64,000 nucleotides of DNA, taken from IMG/VR virus record IMGVR_UViG_3300008266_000014, positions 1-64,000 of that record; one strand, 5' to 3'. Position numbers and translations under genes: made by a program. The DNA is from a virus. The notes beneath the pieces were generated by a model that made no database searches, was not told the origin of the DNA, and saw only the letters and a program-made list of their open reading frames with translations. Position 1 is the stretch's first letter. Every line of letters begins with the position of its first letter. Of this stretch, positions 2,191 to 20,815 are shown piece after piece.

Positions 2191-2877
2191 GTGAAAAGAG
2201 AACTCCTCTTCCCCACTTGTGTTTTTCGCACATCGATTAACGCTCTTACCTACGATAAAGAGCAACTTGTTGCAGATATGATGTTTAACTACAACAAGAC
2301 CCCTCAATACAATAAATGGGATGATGAGTCAATCACCCATCATATCTACGCAAGCAGCGATACAGACTTTCATGCCATGGGTATGAAAGCCGTTAAAGCC
2401 GATAAGTATGGGCTGATTAAAATTTATGACAGTGTGGTGGAACAGTTCTTTAGAGAGCTAAATCACCTTGGCAATATTGAATACTTTTGGGATGTTCAGA
2501 ACATTTCAATCAACACTCAATATATGCGCGAACACCACCACTATGATATTGATTTTGACAGAAAACAAAACGGGTTTCCATTTTACTCTTTCGTTCATTA
2601 CATATCATTCAATCAATCTGTTCACGGGGAGACAGTATTTGTGAACCCAACAACAGCTATGTCGTACGATTTTCTTACACCCCTATCCAAACACTTCGAC
2701 AACCAAAATTGTGATGCCTCTGTTTATTTTTCTGACTGGGTTTTAAATGTAAAAGAAGATGAGATTGTCTTTTTTCCATCTTTTTTAAAACACAGAGTTG
2801 CAAGTACACTCGATCCAAACTATCCAAGAATAACATCTGCTGGTAATATCTCTGTTGTAACTAATAACTATGTTTAA
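2191..2877 (+). CDS. putative 2OG-Fe(II) oxygenase (TIGR02466-like)
   Basis: N-terminal LFPT, HHH, FVHY and FFPSFLKHRV...RITSAGN double-stranded beta-helix signature. Confidence 0.7.
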   Translation: MKRELLFPTCVFRTSINALTYDKEQLVADMMFNYNKTPQYNKWDDESITHHIYASSDTDFHAMGMKAVKADKYGLIKIYDSVVEQFFRELNHLGNIEYFWDVQNISINTQYMREHHHYDIDFDRKQNGFPFYSFVHYISFNQSVHGETVFVNPTTAMSYDFLTPLSKHFDNQNCDASVYFSDWVLNVKEDEIVFFPSFLKHRVASTLDPNYPRITSAGNISVVTNNYV

Positions 2878-3625
2878 CTTCTTTAAGAAACCCCCCAAGG
2901 TAGAGTTCTTCAACGTCAACCCAGGCGTTGCTCAGTTCATGCCTCTGATTCCAGCAAAAGATCTAAAAAGAAACTGGGTGGAGAATGCGCGCAGGGATTT
3001 TTCTGAGGTGAGAAAAAATCCCGACTGGAAAAACCACGAACTTTCACATACTGCCAGATGTCCAGGAATATTCAGCCTATTAAGACATGGTTGGGTATTG
3101 CGCACGTGGTTTGATGTAGTCGTTGAAACCAATGGGGATGGGAGAACATTTAAATGGAGAGCACCAGCCAACCCTTCGAAAGATGTGCCCTTTGATTGGC
3201 ATGGTGAACAGCAACTTTTCGATTACTTCTCTCAGTGGCCAAGTAACACACTTACAAGTGTGCTCAAGTTCATGACAGGGTGGAGATGTAATGTTCCACA
3301 CGGATACTATTTGATGGAAATCCCTATACCCTACAACGAAGAAACAAGATTCACTACACTTCCAGGATTTTTTTATAGGGAGTCTGGTATAGCTCATATG
3401 AACACCCAGATTCTTTGGCATGTAATGAATGGTAACACACTTATAAAAGCTGGCACTCCCATCAGCCAACTCATTCTCCTACCAAAGGAAACTCATGATT
3501 TTGTGTGTAGGGATGAAAAGAAAGAGGATAGAATGGTGATCGACACACTTTACAAATCCTCAAAGTTTGTGTACAATTATGGTGAACTGAAAAAGCTTTT
3601 TGGAGGTAGAAATGAGTCTTTATGA
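2870..3625 (+). CDS. conserved phage protein with CPG motif, possible dUTPase-like fold; paralogue of 6613-7272
   Basis: HTARCPGI...GW...TNGDG...IKAGTPISQ shared with 6613-7272. Confidence 0.6.
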   Translation: MFNFFKKPPKVEFFNVNPGVAQFMPLIPAKDLKRNWVENARRDFSEVRKNPDWKNHELSHTARCPGIFSLLRHGWVLRTWFDVVVETNGDGRTFKWRAPANPSKDVPFDWHGEQQLFDYFSQWPSNTLTSVLKFMTGWRCNVPHGYYLMEIPIPYNEETRFTTLPGFFYRESGIAHMNTQILWHVMNGNTLIKAGTPISQLILLPKETHDFVCRDEKKEDRMVIDTLYKSSKFVYNYGELKKLFGGRNESL

Positions 3626-4064: not shown

Positions 4065-4587
4065 AAGATCCATCTATATCGACATGGACGGAGTCGTTGC
4101 AGATTTCGATAAGTACATCTCTGCATTTCTTGGCCGCCAAATTGGATGGGATGTCCTGGACATTACCGAAGAAGAATGGGCTCGTATTGCGGAAATCGAT
4201 AATTTATACTATCAACTTGATCTAATTGATGAGTCAACTCGCATGGTTGCACTCTGCAAGTCGTTTTCTACTCGGTTTGACATCAGTTTCTTGACTGCGA
4301 TCCCACGTCAGACAACAATGCCATCCGCAAAAGACGATAAAACACGCTGGCTATACAAATATTTCCCTGGAATTCCAATTAATTTTGGCCCTTTTTCGCG
4401 CGATAAACAGAAGTGGTGCAGAGAATTCGACATTTTAATTGACGATAAGCCCGAAAACATCGAGCAATGGGCAGCAAAAGGCGGTTGCGCCATCCTCCAT
4501 AAAGGAACATCTCGTCAAGATTACGACAAAACCATTACAAATATATTAATGGCAGTTGAAAACCCACAATCAAGAATGTATTTATAG
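4057..4587 (+). CDS. HAD-family 5'(3')-deoxyribonucleotidase-like protein
   Basis: IYIDMDGVVADF motif I, FLTA motif II, ILIDD motif IV. Confidence 0.85.
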   Translation: MSKRSIYIDMDGVVADFDKYISAFLGRQIGWDVLDITEEEWARIAEIDNLYYQLDLIDESTRMVALCKSFSTRFDISFLTAIPRQTTMPSAKDDKTRWLYKYFPGIPINFGPFSRDKQKWCREFDILIDDKPENIEQWAAKGGCAILHKGTSRQDYDKTITNILMAVENPQSRMYL

Positions 4588-4631
4588 TTGTTAAACATGT
4601 AATTCTTGCAAAAAACGCGGGAAATTAAGCC

Positions 4632-4670
4632 AAAAAAATAGTTGACCCCTAATTATTTTTGCATGACCAT
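4632..4670 (+). promoter_or_regulatory. candidate sigma70-type early promoter
   Basis: A-tract, TTGACC at 4642-4647, 17-nt spacer, weak -10 GACCAT; sits in an intergenic gap before DUF932. Confidence 0.4.
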
Positions 4671-4711
4671 GCACTTGTAGTTTTCATTTGAACTCTTTTT
4701 GGAGATACATT

Positions 4712-5671
4712 ATGGCACACATGGTCGAAACAATGGCTTACGCGGGTGAAACTCCTTGGCACGGTCTTGGCAAACCAGTTCCAGCAGATCTTTCACCCTG
4801 GCAAATGCTTGATGCAGCTGGGCTAGATTGGAAAGTAGAAAAGATTCCTTCTTTTGCCAACATTAAAGGTAAACAAGTATACACCGGTAAAGATGCTCTT
4901 GTTCGTTCTACCGATGGTCGTATTCTGGATGTGGTGTCGCAGGACTGGAATCCTCTTCAAAATGAAGAAGCATTTGAGTTCTTCAATGATTTTGTTCACT
5001 CTGGTGATATGGAGATGCACACCGCTGGTTCGTTGAAAAATGGTCAGATTGTGTGGGCTCTTGCAAAAGTGAAAGAATCGTTCGAAGTGTTCAATGGAGA
5101 TCAGGTTGATTCATATCTATTGTTTACTCTACCTCACAAGTTTGGTCAGTCTATTGACGTTCGCTTTACCCCGATACGTGTGGTCTGCAACAACACTCTT
5201 ACACTATCACTTAGCACTAAATCAGATAATATGGTGAAGGTATCACATCGCCGCCAGTTTGATGGTGATGAAGTAAAACAGATGTTGGGTATTGCATCTG
5301 ATAAGTTGGCCAAGTACAAAGAGATGGCAAAATTCTTGGGCTCCAAGAAATACAAACAAGAATCCATTATTGAGTATTTTGATCGCATCTTTCCTGTTAA
5401 TGCTTACGGTCGTTCTAAGAACGAGGAAACCAAGGTCAAGAAACAACATTCAGATAATGCTGTTCTTGCAATGCAGGCTCTTGAAGAACAGCCTGGAGCA
5501 AACTTTGCGAAGGGGTCTTGGTGGCAAGCATTTAACGCAGTCACATTCTTGACTGACCATATCGTTGGTAAGACTCAGGAAAATCGTTTGACGTCTGCTT
5601 GGTATGGTCCTAACAAGGCATTGAAGGTAAAGGCGCTTGAGACTGCTGTTGAAATGGCGGAGGCAGCATGA
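4712..5671 (+). CDS. DUF932 / TIGR03299 phage-plasmid-like protein
   Basis: MAHMVETMAY.GE.PWHGLG, TAGSLKNG and TPIRVVCNNTL signature; GGAG SD before ATG 4712. Confidence 0.9.
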   Translation: MAHMVETMAYAGETPWHGLGKPVPADLSPWQMLDAAGLDWKVEKIPSFANIKGKQVYTGKDALVRSTDGRILDVVSQDWNPLQNEEAFEFFNDFVHSGDMEMHTAGSLKNGQIVWALAKVKESFEVFNGDQVDSYLLFTLPHKFGQSIDVRFTPIRVVCNNTLTLSLSTKSDNMVKVSHRRQFDGDEVKQMLGIASDKLAKYKEMAKFLGSKKYKQESIIEYFDRIFPVNAYGRSKNEETKVKKQHSDNAVLAMQALEEQPGANFAKGSWWQAFNAVTFLTDHIVGKTQENRLTSAWYGPNKALKVKALETAVEMAEAA

Positions 5672-5790
5672 AGAAACTAGCATCGGTTCTGCTGGTGCTA
5701 GCTCTTACTGGATGTGGTACCGTTGGTGGTGCCATGTCCGGGATGGGTAAGGACCTATCGAAAGCAGGTGATTGGATCAGTAATAAATAA
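5668..5790 (+). CDS. entericidin A/B-like small lipoprotein (40 aa)
   Basis: MKKLASVLLVLALTGCGTVGGAMSGMGKDLSKAGDWISNK*: lipobox LTGC plus G.G.D...G..I pattern; ATGA overlap. Confidence 0.75.
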   Translation: MKKLASVLLVLALTGCGTVGGAMSGMGKDLSKAGDWISNK

Positions 5791-5871
5791 TGGTTTTCCC
5801 CAGTTAATTTTTAGCATTAACTTACTAGATAGTTAGTAGCCAATACTGGCTCAACTCATAAGGAGAAAAAT

Positions 5872-5946
5872 ATGAAGTGGACTGTTCCTACTGCAAATGA
5901 TATGCGTTTTGGTTTTGAAATCACAATGTATATCGCGAATCGTTAA
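5872..5946 (+). CDS. pqqA: coenzyme PQQ precursor peptide PqqA (24 aa)
   Basis: MKWTVPTANDMRFGFEITMYIANR*: W..P...D.R.GFE.TMY.ANR with the E-x3-Y core; TAAGGAG SD; own terminator. Confidence 0.93.
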   Translation: MKWTVPTANDMRFGFEITMYIANR

Positions 5947-5972
5947 TCAACCATCAACTAACACTTGATTGT

Positions 5973-5999
5973 TGAGCCCCTACTGGGGCTCATTTTTTT
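5973..5999 (+). terminator. rho-independent terminator after pqqA
   Basis: TGAGCCCC-TACT-GGGGCTCA followed by T7. Confidence 0.85.
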
Positions 6000-6011
6000 A
6001 CTGGAGACAAA

Positions 6012-6446
6012 ATGAACTTAAAAGGCACAAAGACTGAGTTGAATCTCAAAGAGGCATTTGCAGGTGAATCACAAGCGAATCGCCGTTATCTATACTTCGC
6101 AAACATGGCTGACATTGAAGGGTCTCCTGAAGTAGCTGCTGTGTTCCGCCACACTGCTGAAGGTGAAACAGGTCACGCACATGGCCACATGGAATACCTT
6201 TTGAACGGTGCTGCTGGTGATCCTGCTACAGGTATGCAAGTTAAGAACGTAGCTGAAGCTCTTGAATCAGCTATTGAAGGTGAGACACACGAATACACCG
6301 ATATGTATCCTGGTATGGCAAAGACTGCTCGTGATGAAGGGTTTGATGAAATTGCTGACTGGTTTGAAACTCTTGCTAAGGCAGAACGTAGCCATGCTGG
6401 TAAGTTTAAGAAAACACTTGATGCTTATAACGCGGGCGTACAATGA
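6012..6446 (+). CDS. rubrerythrin, short form lacking the rubredoxin domain
   Basis: [44 protein letters not shown] and AERSHA di-iron motifs. Confidence 0.92.
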
Positions 6447-6580
6447 GTCTCTCGCCAGAATCAAAAAACTCTGGCAGCAAGACTTGGTTAGACCACTTTG
6501 AGCGTTGGTTTGATATTGCTCTAAGGTTTGGTTGGGTCTTGTTCATCTACGTTGTCGTAACAGGTAATTACATTAGATAG
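6443..6580 (+). CDS. small membrane protein (45 aa)
   Basis: ATGA overlap; MSLSPESK...FGWVLFIYVVVTGNYIR*. Confidence 0.5.
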   Translation: MSLSPESKNSGSKTWLDHFERWFDIALRFGWVLFIYVVVTGNYIR

Positions 6581-6612
6581 TAAACTTTCATTAGTTTTGA
6601 CCCAGCTATATC

Positions 6613-7272
6613 ATGTTAGAGTTTTACACATTTATACCTGATCTGGTAAGTAGTATGCCCATTGAGAAATCAAACATAAGTGATTTTGTTTGGTACAATA
6701 AAATGGTTGCTGATCTCAAGCAGTGCAGGCGTGTATCGGCCCACACATCCAGGTGTCCAGGTATTATTGGTATTGGTAATATGGGGTGGATTCAAAGATC
6801 CTATCAGGACTTTGTAATCCACACTAATGGCGATGGTGTTAGTTTTGATTTTGAGTGTGAAATAGATCAAAAAAAATTAATGTACGGGGATCTAATGAAC
6901 GACTACATCAGCCTGCATCCAGCCTCACAGCTATTTGATTTTGGTAACTTTAAAAAAAACACACTCAAAACTATCGTAAAAATTCAGTCTCCCTGGGTAG
7001 TTAAAATACCCAAGGGATACTCTGTAATAGCCATGCCTATTCCACTTAGCGATAGAAACGAATTTACATCTGCTTGTGGAATCTTAAAACATACTAATTT
7101 TCTGAATGTCCAGTTATTTTGGCACAGTCTTAACGATAGTGTTGTAATAAAAAAAGGGACTCCCTTGCAGCAGTATATTATGGTTATGGATGAGTCACTT
7201 CCTTACAGCGTAAACCAGATTGAAAGTTCACTGGTAGATAATATTATCGATGATATTAGGGCACAGAAATAA
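6613..7272 (+). CDS. conserved phage protein with CPG motif; paralogue of 2870-3625
   Basis: HTSRCPGI...GW...TNGDG...IKKGTPLQQ. Confidence 0.6.
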   Translation: MLEFYTFIPDLVSSMPIEKSNISDFVWYNKMVADLKQCRRVSAHTSRCPGIIGIGNMGWIQRSYQDFVIHTNGDGVSFDFECEIDQKKLMYGDLMNDYISLHPASQLFDFGNFKKNTLKTIVKIQSPWVVKIPKGYSVIAMPIPLSDRNEFTSACGILKHTNFLNVQLFWHSLNDSVVIKKGTPLQQYIMVMDESLPYSVNQIESSLVDNIIDDIRAQK

Positions 7273-7445
7273 TGGAATCTCATAAGCGAACGTTGATAAG
7301 ATCGGTATCTTGGCGTATTGTTGCAACTTTGGTTACAGCTGCATGGACTGGTATTCAGGGAGCTGTAATCATAAATATTTTTATGACAGTAGCTCACTAC
7401 ATACATGAAAGACTCTGGCTTAAAATCAAGTGGGGACGTGAATGA
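7272..7445 (+). CDS. DUF2061-like small membrane protein (57 aa)
   Basis: MESHKRTLIRSVSWRIVAT...HYIHERLWLKIKWG; matches the R...K..SWR / HER.W..I.WG pattern; not in the ORF track. Confidence 0.75.
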   Translation: MESHKRTLIRSVSWRIVATLVTAAWTGIQGAVIINIFMTVAHYIHERLWLKIKWGRE

Positions 7446-7636
7446 TTATTTGTGTTTGTAGAAACATAAAACAATCAGATTACAAATCTAAGAACGAATT
7501 AATCAGTCGGCTGACTGAGGATGATGTTAGTTGTGGGCAGTGTTTAAACTACTGCAAACAACTCAAAGAACACACTATTCATCTAGAAGTGGCAAAGGCG
7601 ACGAATAGACTAAGATACCGCTGGTCGGTAACGTAG
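7442..7636 (+). CDS. BFD-like [2Fe-2S] ferredoxin
   Basis: MIICVCRNI...CGQC (CxC-x~25-CxxC). Confidence 0.7.
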   Translation: MIICVCRNIKQSDYKSKNELISRLTEDDVSCGQCLNYCKQLKEHTIHLEVAKATNRLRYRWSVT

Positions 7637-7657
7637 GGGCGGATCCTACATAGTGTG
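7571..7657 (+). ncRNA. tRNA-like cloverleaf of unknown function
   Basis: CACACTAT/ATAGTGTG 8-bp closing stem; GTAGG-GGCGGAT-CCTAC 5-bp stem with 7-nt loop; TACCG/CGGTA hairpin; no anticodon arm or CCA. Confidence 0.45.
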
Positions 7658-7664
7658 TAACATA

Positions 7665-7982
7665 TTGTTGTAATTCCTTCAAAGTGAAGGCATTCTGGAC
7701 GTGGGTTCGACTCCCACCTAGTCCACCAGAAGTGTTGTTTAGGGTGATATGTAAGAGTTTAACAAGACTCTGAGGATTGGAATTCCTGACCTGTGAACAG
7801 CAGGACACTTCTGATGGGCTAGACATGGTTTCGACAGGGTGAGATAGCAGAGACGGCAACACGGTAGGCGATGACCGTAAATCAAGCAAAAAAAGTAACC
7901 GCAAATGATAGCGAGTACGCTCTAGCAGCTTAAGCTCTAGATGAGGTTTCGCCAGCTGTCCTTATCATCCAATCAGCTGGCA
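7665..7982 (+). ncRNA. ssrA: circularly permuted (two-piece) tmRNA
   Basis: Acceptor piece ends GTGGG-TTCGACT-CCCAC-CTAGTCC-A-CCA (7701-7728) and precedes the coding piece starting GGGCTAG..TGGTTTCGAC (7816). 7-bp acceptor stem with G3:U70. Tag frame ANDSEYALAA* at 7901-7933. Outer ends approximate. Confidence 0.93.
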
Positions 7983-7997
7983 TCACTCCAATCTTAT

Positions 7998-8669
7998 ATG
8001 TTTGAACAACGTCTATATCAAATTGTCAGAAATTCTGTTTCTGAAGATATGTGCTCTCTAATCGATCGCCAGGCTGAGATGGTGAGAAAATTTACTTATT
8101 TCAACGAGGGTATCGATCAATCGGACACAAACTATTTCTCTGACAATCTATGTAAAAATAGTTTTCCTTTGTATGGGTGGAGTTGTACAGATGCGTTATT
8201 GCAGATGTTACAGCCTAAGATAGAAGAAATTACTAAAAAGAAGCTTCTTCCAACATATAGCTATATGAGAATATATTATCCTGGCTCGGACATGAGGAGA
8301 CATATAGATAGACCGAGTTGTGAATACTCTGCGTCTCTATGCATATCAAATGATCCGGATCCCTGGGAACTGTGGGTTGAAAATCTAGAAGGTAGAAACT
8401 TACCTATATTACTATACCCAGGCGACATGCTGGTGTATAGTGGTGTAAAACTCCCACATTGGAGAACTCCTTATCAAGGCAACAGACAAACACAAGTTTT
8501 TTTTCATTATGTTGATGAGGAAGGCAAATATAAAGATTTCAAATATGATTGCAGGCAGGATCTAGGTATTGGATCTGCAGAAGATGCCAATTTGAAGTTA
8601 ATCGAACTATTTGATACACACGGAGACGAGCTTAGGAAAGACGCTAAGAGATTAGGTCTCACCGTATAA
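7998..8669 (+). CDS. 2OG-Fe(II) oxygenase-like protein
   Basis: LLPTYSYMRIY, HIDRPSCEYS, PGDMLVYSG..HWR and QVFFHYVD motifs; start moved to 7998 because ATG 7941 lies inside the tmRNA. Confidence 0.8.
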   Translation: MFEQRLYQIVRNSVSEDMCSLIDRQAEMVRKFTYFNEGIDQSDTNYFSDNLCKNSFPLYGWSCTDALLQMLQPKIEEITKKKLLPTYSYMRIYYPGSDMRRHIDRPSCEYSASLCISNDPDPWELWVENLEGRNLPILLYPGDMLVYSGVKLPHWRTPYQGNRQTQVFFHYVDEEGKYKDFKYDCRQDLGIGSAEDANLKLIELFDTHGDELRKDAKRLGLTV

Positions 8670-8673
8670 TTAT

Positions 8674-8681
8674 TATAAATA
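8674..8681 (+). promoter_or_regulatory. T4-type late promoter
   Basis: Exact TATAAATA in an intergenic region. Confidence 0.75.
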
Positions 8682-8826
8682 CCATTATCTACAATAGGGT
8701 CAACGGCCCAAAGCATTATGAGCAGTTCTTGATAAGGATGTCATTGTGATATTTAAAAATCTGGTAACTGAAAGTAGTATATCCTCGTATTCTAAATTTC
8801 CCGTAACAACAAAAGAGGAAGTAAAC

Positions 8827-9354
8827 ATGAAAAAGATAGTGTTAATAGCACTTCTTGGTTTATGTTCGCTTGTACTTGCTGATGACACGCAGTATGAAAC
8901 CGACACGTCATTGTTGTACACATCTAGCACATTCAGTCAAGTATCAGAACGACAAGTAGAGTGTTTAGCGAAGAACATGTATTTTGAAGCCAAGAATGAA
9001 CCCGAAGCAGGAATCAGAGCAGTTGGTTTTGTTACTCTCAATAGAGTATCTGATCCACACTTTCCGAAAACAATCTGTGAGGTAGTGTACCAAAAAGAAA
9101 GAAGTATGTGCCAATTCTCATGGGTATGTTCTCGTGGCAAGAATCCCAAGATTGATGATCCAAGTAGGTATCGGTGGATTAGACAACTTGCATCTGATAT
9201 AATATACAACTACTCCGATGAAGATGCTAAAGACCCCAGCAAAGGATCTTTATTCTTTCACGCAACATACATCAATCCCAACTGGAAGTTGAAAAAGACC
9301 GTTCGCATAGGTCAGCACGTCTTCTATAAGAGACCAACAAGGAAAACTCAATGA
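8827..9354 (+). CDS. SleB-type cell wall hydrolase (Hydrolase_2) with signal peptide
   Basis: CLAKNMYFEA, NRV..P.FPKTICEVVYQ, CQFSW, IGQHVFY; GAGG SD before ATG 8827. Confidence 0.9.
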   Translation: MKKIVLIALLGLCSLVLADDTQYETDTSLLYTSSTFSQVSERQVECLAKNMYFEAKNEPEAGIRAVGFVTLNRVSDPHFPKTICEVVYQKERSMCQFSWVCSRGKNPKIDDPSRYRWIRQLASDIIYNYSDEDAKDPSKGSLFFHATYINPNWKLKKTVRIGQHVFYKRPTRKTQ

Positions 9355-20389: not shown

Positions 20390-20815
20390 ATGGCTGTTAC
20401 ATACGCAGATAAATTTACAACAACACCTCTATACAACGAGAGGTTTAGTGATTTTTATAGCAATCTAGGCAAGAATTTTGGTACCGGGGATGTTGCTCGG
20501 ATTACCAATGAAGAATCAATTTTTAGTTCACTTAGAAACATTGTACTAACCAGGAAAGGGGAAAGGCCATTCTTTCCAGAATTTGGTTGTAATATAACTT
20601 CCCTGCTTTTTGAAAATTACAACCAATTCACACAACGGGCTGTGGAGACGGAAGTTCGAACTGCGATAGAAAACTTTGAACCTAGGGTATCACTAATTCG
20701 TCTCTTAGTAAATGGACAGCCAGATGAAAACACCGTAGATGTGTCGCTTTATTTCACCATAATAAATAGACCAGAAACTTTTTCACTAAGCTTCCTTCTT
20801 TCAAGAATAAGGTAA
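20390..20815 (+). CDS. 25: baseplate wedge protein gp25
   Basis: NIVLT.KGERPFFPEFG, IENFEPRV. Confidence 0.93.
   Translation: MAVTYADKFTTTPLYNERFSDFYSNLGKNFGTGDVARITNEESIFSSLRNIVLTRKGERPFFPEFGCNITSLLFENYNQFTQRAVETEVRTAIENFEPRVSLIRLLVNGQPDENTVDVSLYFTIINRPETFSLSFLLSRIR

Follow-up and report, generated by a model that had tools for sequence, protein, structure and literature searches.

The genome of an uncultured T4-like myovirus carries a stand-alone gene of 75 bases for a PqqA-family peptide, and it appears quite likely that this gene is functional and sustains the supply of the consumable PQQ substrate during infection, which is the best available reading of the data. The window analysed here consists of the first 64 kb of an IMG/VR record of 155,530 bp, which is estimated to be ~86% complete. 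The G+C content is 39.2%, and 194 of 216 long ORFs are located on one strand. The same contig as pqqA encodes a T4-type large terminase, a tail sheath, a portal, a scaffold and a baseplate wedge protein, and the portal protein shares 53–56% identity with its counterparts in distant T4-like phages (56% with Stenotrophomonas phage DLP6 and 53% with cyanomyoviruses). Judged by this gene content, the source is an uncultured T4-like myovirus, and pqqA is part of a genuine viral genome rather than of host-flanking DNA.

An earlier note on this DNA had described a 24-aa ORF for a PqqA precursor, and the ORF is present exactly as stated, at positions 5872..5946 of the plus strand with 24 codons, a TAA stop and the product MKWTVPTANDMRFGFEITMYIANR. 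The proposed identity, including the comparison with model TIGR02107 suggested in the note, was confirmed with a margin by both curated models: the 24-aa peptide scored 33.3 bits with TIGR02107 (cut-off 20; profile positions 1–21 of 21) and 34.2 bits with PF08042 (cut-off 21.1; profile positions 1–19 of 19), and the E-values of 3e-8 (NCBIfam) and 2.5e-8 (Pfam) place the match far above chance. In a six-frame search of the 155,530 bp, it was the single PqqA match of the entire record (E = 6.4e-8). The core motif of the phage peptide reads E16-I-T-M-Y20, in which Glu16 and Tyr20 make up the E-x3-Y pair that PQQ is built from, and its 24 aa fall within the size range of PqqA peptides (about 20–40 residues). 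By these profile matches, the ORF is a genuine PqqA-family peptide gene. PHROGs contained no family matching the PqqA peptide, and positions 4600–7400 gave zero matches to GenBank phages by megablast.

Curated models for PqqB, PqqC, PqqD and PqqE, as well as the model for PQQ-dependent alcohol dehydrogenase, detected nothing anywhere in the 155,530 bp of the record, even when matches up to E = 1 were accepted. Because the PqqC model matched nowhere, the control included, the search was redone by tblastn with verified PqqB, C, D and E queries from an Albidiferax MAG locus, which were checked against NCBIfam. As a positive control, this search found adjacent PqqB–E genes at 30–39 of the 120 bacterial pqqA loci listed, and it found none at the 120 viral pqqA loci listed and none in the whole phage record. 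Because pqqB–E were detected neither by the models nor by tblastn, we regard the phage pqqA as a stand-alone gene; linkage to pqqBCDE is absent in the phage and is not universal in bacteria either. The statement of the earlier note that pqqBCDE are missing from the window is therefore correct and extends to the complete record, and co-encoding of pqqB–E in viral genomes, which the note had proposed to check, was not seen at any of the viral loci listed. The stand-alone status applies to ~86% of the genome, and pqq enzymes may be encoded on the missing ~14%.

Searching GenBank phages with the PqqA peptide by tblastn resulted in 14 records. The matches included four Melnitz isolates, Venkman, P19250A, MEP301, MEP401 and MEP402, which infect OM43 or LD28 Methylophilales, belong to differing groups and range in size from ~35–44 kb (Venkman, P19250A, MEP301, MEP401 and MEP402) to 141 kb (Melnitz). 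The pqqA ORFs of these cultured phages are mostly unannotated: a hypothetical CDS was called on the opposite strand of pqqA in Melnitz-1 (MZ577095.1, 4001–4075), and the gene of P19250A (KX815270.1, ~1498–1569), coding for the peptide MWTTPAATEMRFGFEVTMYVMNK, is located in an unannotated gap. Two matches to 'Acinetobacter phage MD-2021a' (CAKLQF020000010.1) were excluded as a phage example, because this contig is part of a bacterial chromosome and carries fur, ppk and entB together with a complete pqqABCDE cluster; its pqqA is therefore not a phage gene.

The prevalence check proposed in the earlier note gave a clear result, since a degenerate DNA pattern for FGFE[VI]TMY matched at least 120 viral contigs, and every match listed contained a 22–26-aa ORF of the form M(K)WT[KT]PxAx[DE]MRFGFE[VI]TMY[VI]xN[KR] followed by a stop. 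To avoid circularity, we used a second pattern covering the leader only (W-T-x-P-x-A-x-[DE]-M-R-F-G-F), which also matched at least 120 viral contigs. All of the 120 leader-pattern matches listed retained E-[VI]-T-[ML]-Y, with E and Y invariant, and continued with four further residues and a stop. Within the nine codons of core and tail, which were unconstrained in this search, 78 distinct nucleotide versions coded for only 12 peptides, with a mean pS of 0.80, a mean pN of 0.12 and a pN/pS of 0.15. The tyrosine of the core was encoded by TAC in 42 and by TAT in 36 versions, and all four threonine codons were used. The leader showed a pN/pS of 0.36, as measured in the FGFE-pattern set, in which it was unconstrained. 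The many nucleotide versions of few peptides and the difference between these ratios indicate selection on the protein, which is strongest on the part that becomes PQQ. The earlier note had named a lack of purifying selection on E16 and Y20 as an argument against its proposal, and such a lack was not observed.

The pqqA gene is preceded by the Shine-Dalgarno sequence TAAGGAG (5859..5865, plus strand), 6 nt 5' of the ATG, and is followed by an intrinsic terminator (5973..5999, plus strand) composed of TGAGCCCC-TACT-GGGGCTCA and a run of seven T; both signals had been claimed before and are located as expected. The stem of the terminator (5973–5992) has 8 bp with 6 G-C pairs and starts 26 nt past the pqqA stop, and only one other terminator-like site was found within positions 4500–8200. 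A similar hairpin is known to follow pqqA in bacteria. An SD-like motif was present at the corresponding position in 132 of 140 distinct viral pqqA units, compared to 16 of 140 random positions from the same loci, and a strict intrinsic terminator occurred at a distance of up to 90 nt in 56 of 140 units compared to none of 140 random positions. Because such signals are shared by so many units, the architecture observed here is typical of viral pqqA genes. The leader or intergenic spacer (5790..5858, plus strand) contains three small predicted hairpins. The "hairpin-rich leader" of the earlier note did not hold up, as the 76-nt leader folded no better than expected by chance (z = −1.5, with 18 of 200 shuffles folding equally well or better). 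The full 205-nt unit reached a z of −3.4 versus shuffles, and most of this structure we ascribe to the terminator and to a hairpin within the ORF. Scanning positions 4500–9000 with Rfam revealed no known RNA family over the pqqA unit.

A search for sigma-70-like promoters on the plus strand upstream of pqqA gave no site, and pqqA may share a transcript with the genes before it, which code for a DUF932 protein and an entericidin-like lipoprotein. The late-promoter-like element of the earlier note, AATAAATA, is present at 5782..5789 (plus strand). It lies 83 nt before the pqqA ATG, overlapping the stop codon of the 40-aa ORF upstream, and is a one-off variant of the T4 late-promoter box TATAAATA. 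Its meaning as a promoter was not substantiated, since AATAAATA was observed 16 times on the plus strand versus ~14.8 expected occurrences, with three copies in intergenic positions and most of the others inside genes. Some copies do precede late genes, such as the one at 20761, at a distance of 49 nt from the baseplate wedge gene (20817). The canonical TATAAATA box is enriched before late genes, occurring 10 times on the plus and twice on the minus strand, and 7 of the 10 are intergenic in a genome that is 94% coding. The boxes at 8674, 35755, 56242, 62659, 63675, 78245, 94037, 104179 and 130670 (whole-record coordinates, plus strand) are positioned 26–86 nt upstream of plus-strand genes, which include those for the tail sheath and the scaffold. 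As a separate observation, several viral units with pqqA of this subtype (contigs L005, L048, L033, L056 and L102) have in common, upstream of the gene, a TATAAT-like box, then ACATAC and a short hairpin in the leader (CATAC...GTATG), an arrangement that is not seen in the phage window.

The upstream neighbour of pqqA is a 40-aa ORF for an entericidin-like lipoprotein (5668..5790, plus strand), which scored 23.3 bits with PF08085, exactly at the cut-off of 23.3, gave weak matches to NCBIfam lipoprotein models and contains a lipobox-like LTGC. Its ATG overlaps the stop of a DUF932/TIGR03299 gene (4688–5671), which is shared with viral contig L073 at 79% identity. Downstream, a gene at 6012..6446 (plus strand) codes for a rubrerythrin-type diiron four-helix-bundle protein of 144 aa, which scored 95.7 bits with PF02915 and 125.9 bits with NF045767, under the equivalog cut-off of 200, and is devoid of a rubredoxin domain; PHROGs contained no family for it. 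Because its ATG (6012) is located 12 nt beyond the T-run of the pqqA terminator, the gene is probably reached by read-through. One may speculate about a link between rubrerythrin and peroxide from PQQ synthesis or quinoprotein respiration. Two paralogous proteins without assigned function bracket the pqqA region, one of 251 aa (2870–3625, plus strand) and the other of 219 aa (6613–7272, plus strand); both carry a ...HT[AS]RCPGI...NGDG... core, and the latter matches phrog_7084.

A tmRNA gene of the betaproteobacterial type follows at 7613..7985 (plus strand; 137 bits with RF01850 and 142.8 bits with RF04321), for which ARAGORN predicted the tag ANDSEYALAA. ARAGORN and RF04321 indicate a circularly permuted form, and RF01850, the one-piece beta model, matched over its full length. 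tmRNA genes are also located close to pqqA in the related viral contigs L067, L110, L073 and L033, and rubrerythrin homologues are found close to pqqA in L056 (80% identity), L102 and L110, with the order of the three genes varying between the contigs. Because these neighbours are kept in differing orders, we place pqqA in an accessory region that has been shuffled within this phage group.

With its ending ...DMRFGFEITMYIANR, the phage peptide falls into a minority subtype among the viral ones. The ending EITMYIANR occurred in 7 of the 120 leader-pattern matches listed and at nine FGFE-pattern viral loci among the matches listed. The nearest relatives on the nucleotide level are viral, with 65 of 75 identical positions in L067 and 62 of 75 in L005 and in L048, a 166-kb contig. 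The nearest bacterial peptides among the matches listed (20–21 of 24 residues) belong to Albidiferax, Rhodoferax and Polaromonas MAGs of the Comamonadaceae, whose pqqA loci exhibit a G+C content of 60–64% versus 39% for the phage. Searching one genome per prokaryote species with the pattern MRFGFE[VI]TMY yielded at least 120 loci. The matches listed were mostly from Methylophilaceae (Methylotenera, Methylophilus, Methylovorus, Methylobacillus and Ca. Methylopumilus), and further ones were from Methylophaga, methanotrophs and various Burkholderiales. Among the matches listed, the commonest viral peptides were identical to the commonest Methylophilaceae peptides, and the P19250A peptide was identical to that of a Methylopumilus locus (L174).

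The tmRNA pointed to other genomes. In a blast search of 401 genomes of the order, the best DNA matches of the phage tmRNA showed ~81% identity over 80–100 nt and came from genomes of 1.9–2.3 Mb with tmRNA loci of 40–45% G+C. Neither pqqA nor pqqE was found in the genomes with the tmRNA most like that of the phage, and none of the tested genomes with the most similar PqqA gave a DNA match to the phage tmRNA. Were the tmRNA a good marker of the host, that host would be unable to use the peptide; this link is weak. Because the matches of PqqA and tmRNA fall in different genomes, the host is resolved no finer than Betaproteobacteria/Burkholderiales. The hint of the earlier note at a betaproteobacterial host can therefore be followed at this level, at which peptide type and tmRNA sequence place the putative host, and not at any finer one.

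Quinoprotein dehydrogenases of the periplasm, such as methanol dehydrogenase, depend on PQQ as a cofactor, and one PqqA molecule is destroyed per PQQ made. Because of this consumption, PqqA is a plausible bottleneck after host transcription has been shut off. In the proposed scheme, the phage would contribute the PqqA peptide only, PqqD and PqqE of the host would cross-link Glu16 to Tyr20, and a host protease together with PqqB and PqqC would complete the cofactor. Periplasmic quinoprotein dehydrogenases (in methylotrophs, methanol dehydrogenase) would thereby receive as much PQQ as before or more, and the energy metabolism of the host could go on during the shutdown of its transcription. The strong ribosome binding site and the terminator right after the ORF would favour an abundant short transcript, leading to much PqqA message and less message from downstream, with the rubrerythrin gene presumably expressed by read-through only. 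The earlier note had likewise favoured supply of the substrate; this reading fits the data best. The sequence data establish that the peptide is a member of the PqqA family, encoded on its own in a virus, under purifying selection and widely distributed; that the gene is expressed, that host enzymes process its product and that the phage benefits is our inference.

As an alternative, the note had considered that the phage peptide acts as a decoy or inhibitor, which binds host PqqD or PqqE and blocks PQQ synthesis, either lowering quinoprotein activity or redirecting radical-SAM and SAM resources. PqqD has been reported to bind the leader of PqqA, and a peptide encoded alone, without pqqB–E, and with a leader conserved among the viral copies would suit such a function. 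However, a decoy needs the leader only, yet core and tail are the most constrained part of the peptide (0.15 versus 0.36), and E and Y are invariant in all of the 120 contigs listed. Moreover, numerous viral copies match host peptides exactly, as in the case of P19250A and Methylopumilus, and published relatives add a methanol dehydrogenase, which argues for boosting rather than blocking. We therefore disfavour the decoy and consider it extremely unlikely. Similarly slim chances are assigned to a role outside of PQQ synthesis, be it as a signal, as a small regulatory peptide or, in a variant of this explanation, as an RNA that is itself the functional product. It would agree with the 205-nt unit being more structured than shuffles (z = −3.4), including the hairpin inside the ORF, and with the apparent lack of pqq enzymes in the genomes nearest by tmRNA. 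Yet selection on amino acids with free synonymous change is the opposite of what a functional RNA predicts, and the curated models cannot tell the phage peptide from bacterial PqqA.

The gene may also be a neutral passenger, namely a recently acquired fragment of host DNA in a hyperplastic region of a T4-like genome without any role in infection. While the variable accessory region with its differing gene order between relatives and the apparent absence of an upstream promoter are in line with this, the nearest nucleotide relatives are viral (65 and 62 of 75 positions) instead of bacterial, and synonymous sites are saturated with the protein conserved over at least 120 viral contigs. In addition, SD and terminator are conserved among the viral units, and pqqA is present in phages of differing sizes and groups. 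A neutral passenger is thus very unlikely. Another possibility concerns the host, which may lie outside the Methylophilaceae: the peptide is of a Comamonadaceae-like subtype, and pqqA and pqqE were not found in the genomes with the nearest tmRNAs. If such a host had PQQ-dependent enzymes with an incomplete pqq pathway or none at all, the gene would either be a general helper of quinoprotein respiration well beyond the phages of methylotrophs, or the pqqA/rubrerythrin/tmRNA block would move between phages of different hosts regardless of its use. We regard this as unlikely.

Sustained supply of the substrate, the reading we prefer, has a counterpart in the gene dosage of methylotrophs. We counted three pqqA copies in Ca. 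Methylopumilus universalis, four in a Methylophilaceae isolate, seven in Methylobacillus flagellatus and 12 in a Methylotenera MAG, which are dispersed in genomes with one pqqE each, and the same range of 3–12 copies has been reported for Methylophilaceae (Beck et al. 2014, PMC4109929). At the peak of PQQ synthesis in a production strain of the Methylophilaceae type, orphan pqqA copies ranked among the most highly expressed (PMC9851590). The dispersed copies and the high expression of orphans suggest that extra copies are the hosts' own means of raising the precursor supply, which implies a dosage-limited precursor, and the phage pqqA looks like one more host "orphan" copy. Like the phage gene, the orphans are tiny, stand-alone and far from the single pqqBCDE cluster; they differ from it in being chromosomal, and the phage peptide deviates from the Methylophilaceae type at 9–10 of 24 positions, whereas most of the viral peptides listed have exactly the sequence of such orphans.

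The closest published case is that of T4-like Methylophilaceae viruses from Lake Baikal, which encode PqqA (population VP_266), read as an auxiliary metabolic gene supporting PQQ-dependent methanol oxidation (Coutinho et al. 2020, Microbiome 8:163, PMC7678222). These viruses share with the phage studied here the T4-like type and a stand-alone PqqA precursor. In contrast, they also encode a methanol dehydrogenase and have a G+C content of 35%, whereas no PQQ dehydrogenase was found in our phage with its 39% G+C; the subtypes differ as well, with ...EITMYIANR in the phage compared to the common Methylophilaceae form ...EVTMYVMNK, VP_266 being compared by its published description. According to the same study, phage P19250A lacks these helper genes (PMC7678222), a statement contradicted by the intact, unannotated pqqA in the P19250A sequence. 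In general, the cultured Methylophilales phages have known methylotroph hosts and contain intact PqqA ORFs of 22–24 aa that are 64–71% identical to the phage peptide. In Melnitz, a T4-like phage (Kyanoviridae), pqqA is located among small accessory genes and tRNAs, and the locus displays no synteny with that of our phage. This 75-base gene, missed by gene callers, appears among the commonest helper genes of phages of methanol oxidisers, and because it is missed, the influence of viruses on one-carbon cycling is probably under-annotated.

The PqqA peptides of Comamonadaceae (Albidiferax, Rhodoferax and Polaromonas) are identical to that of the phage in their C-terminal half, ...DMRFGFEITMYIANR. 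Unlike the phage gene, theirs are located in loci of high G+C content (60–64%) and are operon-linked in the one genome checked, that of the Albidiferax MAG, which contains a single pqqA copy with pqqBCDE directly after it. Viral PqqA with the same interpretation was published in 2020 (PMC7678222), and the phage gene adds a member to this group and no new mechanism, leaving the published picture unchanged as one more example of a less common subtype. What is particular here is the combination of a Comamonadaceae-like peptide subtype with a shuffled pqqA/rubrerythrin/tmRNA accessory region.
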